A stretch of 63,976 bases of DNA, counting the filler, from Reclinomonas americana ATCC 50394 (lineage: Eukaryota): NCBI GenBank assembly GCA_048213135.1. It is 13 parts of 13 records of this genome, joined end to end, with 100 filler letters (N's around TTAATTAATTAA, not from the genome) between each part and the next. Parts side by side here need not be neighbours in the genome. Positions count along the whole stretch, not along the records: positions 9,783 to 31,588 come from AFZH01019408.1; 12 more parts are not named here. One strand, 5' to 3'. The position numbers and the translations under genes are program-made. Positions 27,212 through 31,072 of the stretch are shown here, piece by piece. The notes below the pieces were generated by a model. It saw nothing but the letters and a program-made list of their open reading frames with translations. It was not told where the DNA came from and ran no database searches. Within the stretch, counting starts at the first letter, position 1. Each line of letters opens with the position of its first letter.

Positions 27212-29670
27212 TCACTGTGAAGGTCCAGCCGGTCCCGCTCCTCCCTCTGCTGCCTCGCTCAAGCGCCTCAGCTCGTCCAGCACATACGATGCTGATACGC
27301 GCGTGGCTTGTGGCCTCTGCATCACACACGCGCAATGAGCTGCCACCTCTTCCATAACACAATCCACTTTGCCGGCACGCAACCCAGCACTGCCGAATGA
27401 GATTGCGAACATCCTCCGGCACGGCAGCCCGCACACCCTCATCGTCAAGATCGGCGGGTGGAATGCCCGTACGCATGGAATGCAGAATCGCCTGCAGTGT
27501 CACGCCACTGAAAGGTTCTTGACGAGTGGCGATGAACAAGAGCAGGGAACCAAGTCCATACACATCCGCCCTTTCATCATACTGTGAGTGGTGAAGGAAT
27601 CCATGAGGGAACACCACTCTCACAGTTGCTCAACAAGAGAAGAGAATGTCATCAATGCACCTCCTGATCCAGCATGGCCTCCGGCGCAGCATACGCCGCG
27701 GTGCCGTGGTTCGACTGCATCTTGCCAAGAGTGCCGTGAATCTTGGCCTCACCAAAGTCGCACACCTTGGCCACGAGTCGATCCTCGCTGATGAGGATGT
27801 CTGTGAACAAGCAGTGGGAACAGAGTCAGGAATGAAAGAAGCAGATTGATCTGGAAGATGTTCCACTGTCCTCGTTCTCATCCTCTCTTTGCGTCAGCAT
27901 CTCAACATCCTCTTCTCTTGTCGTCTCGTATTCTCCCATAACCCACTCCAAAACGAAACTCTGTGGCTTGAGGTCGCGATGCAGCACTCGACGCGAGCGC
28001 ATATGCACAACTGCGGATGCCATTTGCACGAGCACATTGACCTCACACGCCTGGTTGTCTCTCCCTTCCTCTCATCTTCTCTTGCATCAACATCTCACAA
28101 TCCTCTTCTTTGCAGTCTCCCATCACCCACTCCGACACGCAACTCTGTGGCTTGAGATCACGATGCACCACTCGACGCGAGTGCATGTGCACCACCGCCG
28201 ACGCCACTTGCACGAGCAGACTGAGCAGGCGTTGAGTCGTCACGTGCTCATCCTTCACCAGGTCGTGCAGCGTCTCGGCAATGCCCTCCTCTTCATCCTC
28301 ACGACCGACATATTCGAGCACGAGACCGAGACCACTCGGGTCGTCATTGCACACGGCTACCAGTTTCACAACGTGTGGGTGACTGTGTGCAGGCGCATGA
28401 GCGACGACGGTCAGCAGTCATGTGCAGTAATCAGGAAAGCACGCAACTCGAGTTGCATCAGCAGAGAGTGCTCGTTCTCAAAGCACGCATTAATGCGTTT
28501 CCAGTCCGCCGATTGTGCATCTCGTGCTTGCCTCCTGACCAAGTACCGCTTGTATGCCACGGTCTGTGACACACCGCCGAGACGGAGAGAGGCATGGAAG
28601 ACAGCATTTTGACCTGCAGTGGCAAACGGAGGAGATGAGCTCCTGCCCATTCACACAGAGATGCAGGCACACGGAGATGATCATACCAATGGCAAGCTGT
28701 CTTGAAGGCGTCAAGTCAGAGAACGACACAACTGGGGCGCGAATGGCGAATCGCGCTGCTCTCTCCGTCACCAGCTCGGCCGTCACATTGATGCGACACA
28801 CATCTGTGCTCAGAGAGAGTAGATGAGAAAAATGAAGACACCAAGTGGCGATAAGCTGTCGTAACTCTCATACGCTTGGAACAGCAGACGGATACTCTCG
28901 TGCTGTCCGTCGGGAAACAGCGTATGGAGCGAGTCGCGAACCAGCCGCATGACGCTCACGTACTCCGCGTCTTCGAGTGCAGAGAGACGGGCCAGGTGAG
29001 ACACGCGATGTCGCACACCTCGCAAGTTCTCCACGGCTCGAATCTGCGAGCACATTGACAAGTGAGAACAATGAGAATATCAACAATGATGGCACAAGCA
29101 GAGAGCACACCTTGGCGGGGTCAGCGAGAAGTCGCACAGCAACACGGTCTTCGTTTGTAACAGGATCGAGACGGACAGAACCCTTCTGTAGATCCGCATC
29201 TGGGCAAGCGGCGAAAGGTACGAATGTTGTGTACAGCAGCAGCGTGCCCAGCAGCGACACATCCATGCCCGTGGTCACTCCACTCCGCTTGAACTCTCGA
29301 ATTGTCTCGTAGTTGGACGGGAATAGCTCGACGGAGCGCATGCGAATGTTTCCGCGCTTGTCCAGAGTCATTCGGCAGTATCTGTGAGGCAGAATGAGCG
29401 CAAAAGAGACAAAACACATACAAGACTGTCCCTCCCTCAGCACCTCGATGATGGAGCTGGAAGACAGAGTTGCTGAATGTCGAATTCGTCGGGGAAGAAG
29501 TCAGCGACGAGTTGCTGCAGCAGCGAGCCAAGTGCCAGGGGAATGATCTCATGTACGACTTCAGTAAGCATCAAGATGGGACGGCGGTCACTGTGCAGCC
29601 AAGAGTGAGGTGCCTTACGGCAAGAACAAAACAGGGAGAATGAGTCACGAAGAAACCTGAGAAAGTCCAT
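27212..29670 (-). CDS. DZIP3-type HEPN domain + TKL-like protein kinase; probably the 3' part of the ankyrin gene at 29685-31072 (main exons ~29444-29590, 29111-29381, ~28866-29043, 28687-28803, 28448-28613, 28144-28382, 27661-27800, 27384-27581, 27212-27316)
   Basis: Kinase motifs VAYK, FENE, HPHVVKL, HRDLKPQN, KVCDFG, GTAAYAAPE, ADVYGLG, LIRQCW; the Gly loop is degenerate (LAIGQNAVF). Upstream lie MDVSLLGTLLL and VENLRGVRHRVSH (R-x4-H). The HEPN-to-kinase splice junction near 28804-28866 is not cleanly resolved. Confidence 0.75.
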
Positions 29671-29684
29671 GTTGAAGAGAGCGC

Positions 29685-31072
29685 TCAGTTGGCCTTGTTG
29701 CGCACCCTTTGCCGTTCAGCGGTGAGATTGGTCTGCAGCTCCGTGACTTGTTGCTGGCTCTGAGCTTGAGCTTGCTGCAGTTCATCGATTCGATGTTGCT
29801 GTTCAGCAAAGGTTTGACGATGCTCAGCATTGGTTCGTTGCAGCTGAGTGACAAGTTCTTCGAGCTCTCGTCGCTGTCGATCCCATTCTCGCTGCTGTTG
29901 CTGTCGCTCCTGCCGTGCAGCGGCGAGATCGCGCCGGAGTTGGGTGATGGGTGCGTCCTTGTCGGTGACGTCGTCGACCGCCTGCGCAGCGCAGAACAAG
30001 AGAGAGAGAGAGAGAGAGGAGGAGAGAGAGAGAGAGAGAGTCCGAGAACACGCACGATGGAAACAAACATGCGCAAGCGAGACGACACTGCCTCTCACCT
30101 GGCGTGATGGCGATGTATTATCTGCAAGACGAAAAGTAAGCGAAGCAAACATCGAGGAGAGTGTGAGAGAGGAGAAAAACACACATCAACCATCTGCACA
30201 AGGCAAATATGAGATCTCACCTGCTGCTCGTGGTGGCGGTGGTGGTGAAGAGGGAGGGGAGATTTGTGGTTGTCGTTGTTGTGGGCGTGCTGGCTCTGCG
30301 TGTTTTTGCAGGGTGAACACAAGCAGAGAAACACGCAAGGAGGAGTGTGTGCAACACGAAAATGAGATCTCACCTGCTGGTGGCTGTGGTGGTGGAGGCG
30401 GAGAGGGAGGAAGTGGTTGCTGTTGGCGTGGTGGGGGTGCTCGTTGCTCCGCAGCGAGGCGGTCGAGCAACTCGGCAACTTGTTGCTTCTTATTGTCGCG
30501 TGCCCTATCAGCCGCCGTCTTGCCATCCTTGTTGACCATGGGAATGAGGTCGGGAAAGCGAGTGGTGAGGAGTCGCACAATGGCTTCGTGGCCATTCCAG
30601 GCAGCGCAGTGCAGCGCAGTATACTGGTCTGCTTTGGTGACCGCCCGCACCATCTTCGGCGGACATCGTCGCTCATCGGCAAGCAACCACTCCACCACTC
30701 GCAGATGCCCATAGGAGGCAGCCACCATCAGTGGCGCGTAGCCATTGTCGGTGACCATTTGTGCGAGTTGTGGCCCGACGCCACTCTCCTCCCACAAATA
30801 CTCCAACACAGAGAGATGGCCAAGCGCAGCGGCATAGTAAAACGCAGATCCACCGCCAAGCGTCTTCTCTCTCTTCAGCAGTGTCTGTGCGCCCTCACGC
30901 GCCACCAACTCGCGCAGTGCCCTCACATCGCCCTCAATTCCCATCTCCCATGCTTTCTTCCTCTTCTGTTGTTGACTGTCCAACGAGCAGCAATCGTCAG
31001 AGAGAGAGAGAGAGGAGAAGAAAAAGCCAGTAACAAACACACACACCTGTCACTGCCCTGTGCTGCACCCAT
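29685..31072 (-). CDS. Ankyrin-repeat, proline-rich, coiled-coil protein or N-terminal gene part (exons 31047-31072, 30374-30975, 30221-30295, 30099-30121, 29685-29981)
   Basis: Starts MGAAQGSDSQQQKRKK. About four ankyrin repeats (SAFYYAAALGH, APLMVAASYGH, TALHCAAWNGH, GKTAADRA), two Pro-rich exons and a Gln/Glu-rich heptad exon. Phases are consistent. Confidence 0.8.

Follow-up and report, generated by a model that had tools for sequence, protein, structure and literature searches.

A minus-strand gene in a 63,976-nucleotide stretch of DNA from the microbial eukaryote Reclinomonas americana ATCC 50394 (assembly GCA_048213135.1; the whole stretch, 13 parts joined end to end with filler, is referred to as the window) raises the question of whether the design of RNase L, in which a sensor, a kinase fold and a ribonuclease (RNase) share one chain, has been assembled more than once. 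An earlier note on this DNA had read the locus, at positions 27212–31072, as a single gene encoding ankyrin repeats, a coiled coil, a HEPN-like domain and a protein kinase, of convergent origin with respect to RNase L. The analysis described here finds that the architecture is a novel arrangement of known parts within an expanded gene family. On balance we lean slightly towards a reading in which this family is a lineage-specific set of at least 42 likely cytoplasmic immune switches, each joining sensor, RNase and kinase, with the window holding a frameshifted member.

The gene (31072–27212, minus strand) comprises 14 exons and 13 introns, all of them GT-AG with CAG at the 3′ end; twelve introns are 62–117 nt long and one is 343 nt, and the splice sites of introns 5–9 are kept in most paralogues. 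Exon 1 (31047–31072) carries the start codon and an MG-type N-terminus, the ATG-Gly at 31072 being as previously noted, and the same exon is present at the paralogous loci L031, L033 and L034. Exon 2 (30374–30975) encodes an ankyrin module of about four repeats plus a cap (Pfam Ank_2, E 8.5e-19), the number proposed before, with a fast-changing predicted binding face, and begins a Pro-rich linker that runs on, Pro/Gln-rich, through exons 3 and 4 (30221–30295 and 30099–30121) into the coiled coil of exon 5 (29657–29981), which extends up to a conserved phase-2 donor; this linker and coiled coil had likewise been seen correctly. The HEPN-like domain is spread over three exons. Exon 6 (29444–29590) encodes its first long helix (residues 4–32 of a paralogue model, with a predicted local distance difference test score, pLDDT, of 87–92; ratio of non-synonymous to synonymous substitution rates, dN/dS, 0.11), exon 7 (29111–29381) a beta-hairpin insert and the D-x-S-L-L helix, whose M and D are the same in all 31 models, and exon 8 (28866–29043) helices 3 and 4 with the RHRVSH motif (dN/dS 0.09). 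A linker in exon 9 (28687–28803) reaches the kinase Gly loop, and exons 10–14 (28448–28613, 28144–28382, 27661–27800, 27384–27581 and 27212–27316) encode the kinase, with VAYK, alphaC Glu, HRD, DFG and APE. The HEPN-like motifs lie where they had been placed, MDVSLL from 29263 and RHRVSH at 29013–28996, all four named kinase motifs are present, and the Gly loop is indeed degenerate, one Gly of three remaining in 27 of 31 family models. In a Pfam scan the ankyrin and kinase (Pkinase) exons were matched and exon 5 gave generic coiled-coil matches only; the three HEPN-like exons had no matches. Within intron 11, the 3′ end of kinase exon 11 is partly duplicated (27960–28041, minus strand); the duplicate also occurs in close paralogues and is therefore no artefact of the window's contig.

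When the two middle (HEPN) exons were used to search the window's own 108-Mb genome, each returned 42 matches at matching loci (40–98% identity), a number that is a lower bound. Forty of these loci were fetched, the two left out being the window's own contig and one contig of 1.6 kb. Ankyrin, middle domain and kinase lie on the same strand and in this order at 34 of the 40, which supports, at the level of the family, the proposal that one gene joins ankyrin, coiled coil, HEPN-like domain and kinase; kinase exons follow 3′ of the middle domain in 39. Models that begin at the first HEPN exon and end at the stop codon were complete for the window and 30 of the 40 loci (10 being partial), and all 31 are free of internal stops from HEPN to kinase. 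dN/dS is 0.08–0.22 across all regions and lowest in the RxxxxH helix and the catalytic region of the kinase (0.08 in each), and purifying selection, as judged from these rates, acts on both HEPN and kinase. The genome has duplicated segments, such as contig C257, which is colinear with the window at roughly 72–95% identity, and two near-identical IRE1-like loci, and some of the 42 copies may therefore be haplotypes or homeologues. A quick tree, from which L030 and the partial models were left out, served only to name nearest copies, and a candidate intronless copy was discarded because its frame of 1598 residues was a run of N.

The identity of the middle domain is central to any reading of this family. 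The pattern R-[NHD]-x3-H alone is frequent by chance, with dozens of matches in six-frame translations of the window, so it is solely the invariance of the RxxxxH motif across the family that lends it weight: all 31 models have both Arg and both His residues of RHRxxH as well as the Asp of MDxSLL. Even copies only ~50% identical retain the R, the polar H/N after it and the last H, and the divergent copies L012–L016 carry the canonical RN form. Two paralogues read in frame across both HEPN introns, which enabled structure prediction. The AlphaFold model of one of them, L038, built from 50 alignment rows, has a mean pLDDT of 71.5, with a helical core at 84–95 and intron-coded inserts below 50; its helices span residues 4–32, 111–120, 181–204 and 209–226 (read through two introns). 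Compared with 48,161 chains, its six best matches include four HEPN proteins: Csm6 at the top (4RGP; Z 8.3, root-mean-square deviation 3.7, 111 residues aligned) and, at ranks 3, 4 and 6, Roquin (4TXA, Z 7.0), AF0298 (2HSB, Z 6.9) and sacsin (3O10, Z 6.7), with 1WWP at rank 39. A Foldseek re-alignment was led by a second Csm6 (6TUG, Z 6.4). These best structural matches are prokaryotic CRISPR ancillary nucleases that share 11–17% identity with the family, so the likeness is in fold only. In section 7 of PMC3710099 the HEPN layout is described as a motif that ends helix 3 ahead of helix 4, with inserts before helix 3, and the L038 model agrees on both counts.

A second line of evidence points to HEPN domains of the DZIP3/hRUL138-like and CXorf38 (DUF4559) type, which have the same motif order, D-x-S/T-L-L and then R-N/H-x3-H. 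The nearest ESM Atlas clusters of two paralogues include DUF4559/HEPN_DZIP3 (0.93–0.96), and the family's weak Pfam matches are to the same type; the family differs in falling below the Pfam cut-off and in its length of ~200 residues with a beta-hairpin insert. Those rows of Table 1 in PMC3710099 that were seen list ankyrin and NACHT fusions and lineage-specific expansions for this type of HEPN, and no kinase fusion of it appears among them. The claim of a HEPN fold is thus supported for the family, if not decisively, by the L038 model, although no Pfam HEPN cut-off is reached, and judging from the model the middle domain very probably has this fold.

Relatives of the HEPN-like domain were also sought outside the genome. 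None was found among 7998 longer and 7994 near-length candidates, and none was confirmed in metagenome and viral contigs; these negatives are weak because the narrow alignment A1 was used. The sole match among 1.84 billion representatives, a repetitive nematode protein, was judged an artefact. In sequence searches of the Protein Data Bank (PDB), alignment A1 gave only PCNA (E ~0.5–1 per domain), rejected as a chance match, and alignment A3 gave no match. The 120 listed of 667 matches to the kinase, some with partial domain lists, include no recognised HEPN accession, and no ankyrin–HEPN–kinase family is described in the literature titles and opening abstracts searched, which mostly excluded subscription papers.

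The kinase is apparently active, to judge from its sequence. The Lys, the alphaC Glu, HRD and APE are invariant in 31 of 31 models, the Asp of DFG is present in 30 and the K and N of HRD-x-K-x-x-N in 29. Its best database matches, at 21–32% identity, come from mixed groups, and with a profile of the family kinase the IRE1-like exon of the genome scores 28 bits and a CDK exon 40 bits, on fragments of unequal size. RNase L and IRE1 resemble the family in having a kinase fold and a HEPN-superfamily RNase motif in one chain, with a repeat sensor, and the eukaryotic kinase-plus-HEPN proteins covered in part of PMC3710099 are those of the KEN lineage, IRE1 and RNase L. However, the family has HEPN before the kinase, whereas RNase L (ankyrin–pseudokinase–KEN) and IRE1 have it after, and unlike them it has a coiled coil ahead of HEPN and at least 42 copies; its kinase also keeps the catalytic residues, whereas that of RNase L is described as a pseudokinase in the relevant passages of PMC4748810. 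Matches above the cut-off of the KEN model PF06479 are limited to two other loci, L087 (contig C58) and L085 (C2620), which served as a control. They are 95.6% identical, and one of them was read as an IRE1-like gene; no member of the family is among them, and the family HEPN profile does not match either locus. These results favour the convergent origin first proposed. The family is neither RNase L nor IRE1, since the domain order differs, the middle domain is of another type than KEN, and separate IRE1-like genes are present in this genome; its origin is likely independent of both.

The front end of the protein has the look of a sensor. Rates were compared in 24 non-overlapping pairs from 82 ankyrin modules, sister-gene modules (see below) included. 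At 27 predicted binding-face sites, which we placed by assuming the general ankyrin consensus and which were picked after the entropy profile had been viewed, dN was 0.44, 4.5 times the 0.098 at the 138 other sites, and 0 of 1000 random site sets reached this value. The variable faces would point to many different ligands, not to a single nucleotide such as the 2-5A that binds the ankyrin repeats of RNase L and activates it. Six loci are without this ankyrin, and the joins of their upstream modules are placed by position: WD40 repeats precede the HEPN–kinase exons at L036 (4755–6248, minus strand) and L043 (4687–6565, minus strand), another ankyrin type at L048, a long coiled coil at L018, a fragment of the sister kinase at L050 and a gap at L045. 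At L036 the WD40 repeats are followed by a hydrophobic stretch and basic run resembling a transmembrane helix.

The sister gene has the ankyrin–Pro–coiled coil front end and a different kinase, presumably IRAK/Pelle-like from its motifs, and no HEPN. It lies directly upstream in 7 of the 40 loci; the gene was placed at L033 (6900–9901, minus strand) and also at L023, L025, L026, L031, L034, L037 and L069, and contig C257 has three consecutive copies. On contigs C33 (L082, L014, L015) and C105 (L083, L016, L084), ankyrin exons of ~600 bp stand in tandem in groups of six or more; those viewed on C33 are symmetric (phase 2-2), which would lend itself to the shuffling or skipping of exons. A scheme in which variable first exons are spliced to a shared HEPN–kinase part was rejected, because the conserved donor motif is confined to the position immediately 5′ of the HEPN exon, the upstream modules are parts of separate kinase genes, and those tandem ankyrin exons that were viewed have symmetric phase. 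LRR/TPR receptor families with GTPase or NB-ARC domains likewise combine high birth and death, exon-encoded repeat units and diversifying ligand-binding repeats; they differ in having no RNase, and in the present family an entire block of four ankyrin repeats is encoded by a single exon. The membrane anchor suggested earlier, through a myristoyl group and a basic patch, does not hold as a family trait. Among 29 other ankyrin-bearing copies the start exon encodes MG in 6 and is a bare ATG-AG/GT in 13, the remaining 10 having another start or none found, with exons further upstream possible, and the RKKAW basic patch also begins internal ankyrin exons. Myristoylation is possible, from the sequence, in the window's subclade only.

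A mechanism can be proposed from these features. Most probably, binding of a trigger (the ligand) by the fast-changing repeats would permit two molecules to pair through their coiled coils; their predicted HEPN domains would then make up a single composite RNA-cutting site, and the attached kinase would gate the RNase by trans-autophosphorylation or signal onward. In IRE1, trans-autophosphorylation of the kinase gates the RNase. HEPN RNases are dimer-dependent and metal-independent in the sections of PMC3710099 and PMC4748810 that treat their biochemistry, and we infer that RNase activity in the family would be the same. The dimer-dependent site is modelled on Csm6, IRE1 and RNase L as outlined in part of PMC4748810, where RNase L and IRE1 are given a dimer-dependent composite site of the kind that would be expected here by analogy. 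By that analogy the HEPN domain is probably an active RNase, and a role in defence seems a reasonable, slightly less secure, expectation; the trigger, the immune role and the choice between gating and relay by the kinase are only inferred. A fuller version, held tentatively and at rather less than even confidence, is that a large receptor–RNase repertoire was built independently of IRE1 and RNase L, in which a constant HEPN–kinase effector is joined to exchangeable sensors (ankyrin or WD40) that evolve under diversifying selection, with an ankyrin–coiled coil–kinase partner gene often alongside, each variant recognising a different pathogen molecule and cutting RNA.

Several observations weigh against this sensor–RNase–kinase reading. 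The window's own copy is frameshifted ahead of HEPN (see below), the ankyrin-to-kinase exon joins are predicted from genomic conservation only, and the dN/dS of the binding face, 1.5 with the dS of all sites, is ~0.9 with the sites' own dS, so that relaxed constraint is possible. With regard to the fold, an AlphaFold run on 11 alignment rows reached a pLDDT of only 45.6 and gave generic bundle matches, with no HEPN title in the top 50. Non-HEPN bundles stand at ranks 2 and 5 for the L038 model, its Z-scores of 6.7–8.3 are in the range that the tool calls common for helical bundles, and the Foldseek check proposed earlier, run with this model against PDB and viral models, gave no match at E ≤ 0.001. 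As the Z-scores are modest and Foldseek has no significant match, the weight falls on the enrichment of HEPN entries. The best HEPN Pfam match, HEPN_DZIP3 at E 0.0086 in paralogue L012, is sub-threshold; PF18738 reached at best 16.3 bits against a 27-bit cut-off in a scan of exons or intron read-throughs only, and all 42 copies were missed when the genome was searched with PF18738. The Atlas recognition values (1952 and 1863) are below the 2300 mark, the Pfam share of the clusters is 11–38%, and three of the ten best named matches share one family. Finally, the E-x3-[KR] of many HEPN families is not evident among the invariant residues; the invariant Asp of M-D-x-S-L-L is an upstream acidic candidate. 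Followed to the end, such points would make the middle domain an unrelated helical bundle with a chance motif, consistent with modest Z-scores, a motif that is common by chance and the lack of any significant sequence match to HEPN families or the 1.84 billion representatives. This we regard as quite improbable, however, given four HEPN chains in the top six of 48,161, a motif at the end of helix 3 with inserts ahead of that helix as in section 7 of PMC3710099, and Atlas neighbours and weak Pfam matches that both indicate DZIP3/CXorf38-type HEPN.

If the fold is accepted, the domain might still be a non-catalytic dimerisation or RNA-binding module in a set of repeat-domain signalling kinases, whose output would be phosphorylation. 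The kinase motifs are conserved as strongly as the HEPN motif, the sister gene has the same ankyrin–coiled-coil front end and a kinase without HEPN, Roquin is among the fold matches, non-catalytic HEPN domains are described in part of PMC3710099, and most NLR-linked HEPN copies shown have lost RxxxxH. Yet non-catalytic HEPN families typically lose the motif, according to the same part of PMC3710099, and here its R, polar H/N and final H are invariant in all 31 models and survive at ~50% identity, which leaves this alternative unlikely, if the most credible of the three. An RNase–kinase that serves housekeeping or the stress response, through RNA processing or regulated decay, rather than defence has precedents in IRE1 and Las1, HEPN RNases with housekeeping roles in the material seen of PMC3710099. 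It has little chance of being correct: birth and death to at least 42 copies, swappable repeat modules and fast binding faces fit immune receptor families as portrayed in part of PMC3341825, and the genome has separate IRE1-like genes.

The sensor–RNase–kinase reading thus applies to the family, and the window's copy does not stand as the intact ankyrin–HEPN–kinase gene originally described. A break at 29685–29697 (minus strand) consists of a 4-base gap relative to paralogues at ~29697 and a premature TGA at 29687–29685. The frame spliced at conserved splice sites ends at codon 341 with this TGA, before HEPN and kinase, because of the gap relative to L031 and L033. In the close paralogues L031, L033 and L034 the coiled coil is open through to the conserved donor, and the open frame before that donor is 19 codons in the window against 58–436 in the other 38 of 39 donor-bearing copies. 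Private changes 3′ of the break number 12 synonymous and 4 non-synonymous in the window, against 13 and 4 in intact L031; as there is no decay 3′ of the break, it is either recent or an assembly error. A recent pseudogene or null allele is marginally favoured, an assembly error is a possible but weaker candidate, and rescue by unusual splicing is improbable. The frame would be kept if a donor at 29705 were spliced to an AAG acceptor at ~29614, but this rescue was rejected as unsupported, since a conserved segment is lost and the acceptor is not CAG. For testing, the window's copy is the wrong one, and the intact paralogues L031, L033 and L034 are preferable.

A HEPN-like domain also occurs in a neighbouring NLR-like gene (9054–15036, plus strand; HEPN-like/STAND NTPase/TPR, with Walker A at 12211 and TPR_12 at E 5e-17), within which an assembly gap falls (9683–9782). 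The same motif order reported for its HEPN is there, with RNKIVH at 10699, so the window's NLR-like gene retains the motif absent from most copies shown. Searching the genome with the NLR-like HEPN exon gave 75 matches, and several of them sit in ~4.8-kb tandem arrays (C476, C195 and C341). Like the family HEPN, the NLR-like HEPN is encoded by three exons: a phase-0 intron falls 10 codons before the catalytic Arg (AG there in 32 of 32 NLR matches, some loci overlapping) and all 8 NLR copies shown have a phase-2 intron following the first helix. Kinship of the two domains is supported by these two matching introns; their profile similarity is borderline (E ~0.01, above all column shuffles in one of three runs). 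From the sequences, the two HEPN domains likely share a common origin. Tandem repeats of ~310 bp (7866–9230, plus strand), each with the start of the first HEPN-helix exon of the NLR-like gene, are present in the window and also on C257.

Head to head with the family gene, ~200 bp from its ATG, is a CDK-like kinase gene (31271–33183, plus strand), which we take to be CDK7-like. Its first exon recurs upstream of the copies on L031, L033 and L034, and three times on L069, which suggests that duplications carried the fragment along. Elsewhere in the window, large direct repeats at 40025–58517 (2.0 kb at 96% and 3.1 kb at 94%) encode Ser/Thr/Val/Gly-rich adhesin-like units on the minus strand, a low-complexity tandem repeat tract lies at 16790–18230, and two Walker A motifs (60631 and 61997, plus strand) belong to a double-AAA ATPase gene.

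Should the sensor–RNase–kinase reading be correct, R. americana would have a second, independently assembled kinase–HEPN family, with a kinase that looks active, the domains in reverse order and dozens of variable sensors, and the design would have arisen more than once. It would also offer an effector against viruses or parasites that is open to experiment in a microbial eukaryote, a setting in which immunity is poorly known.

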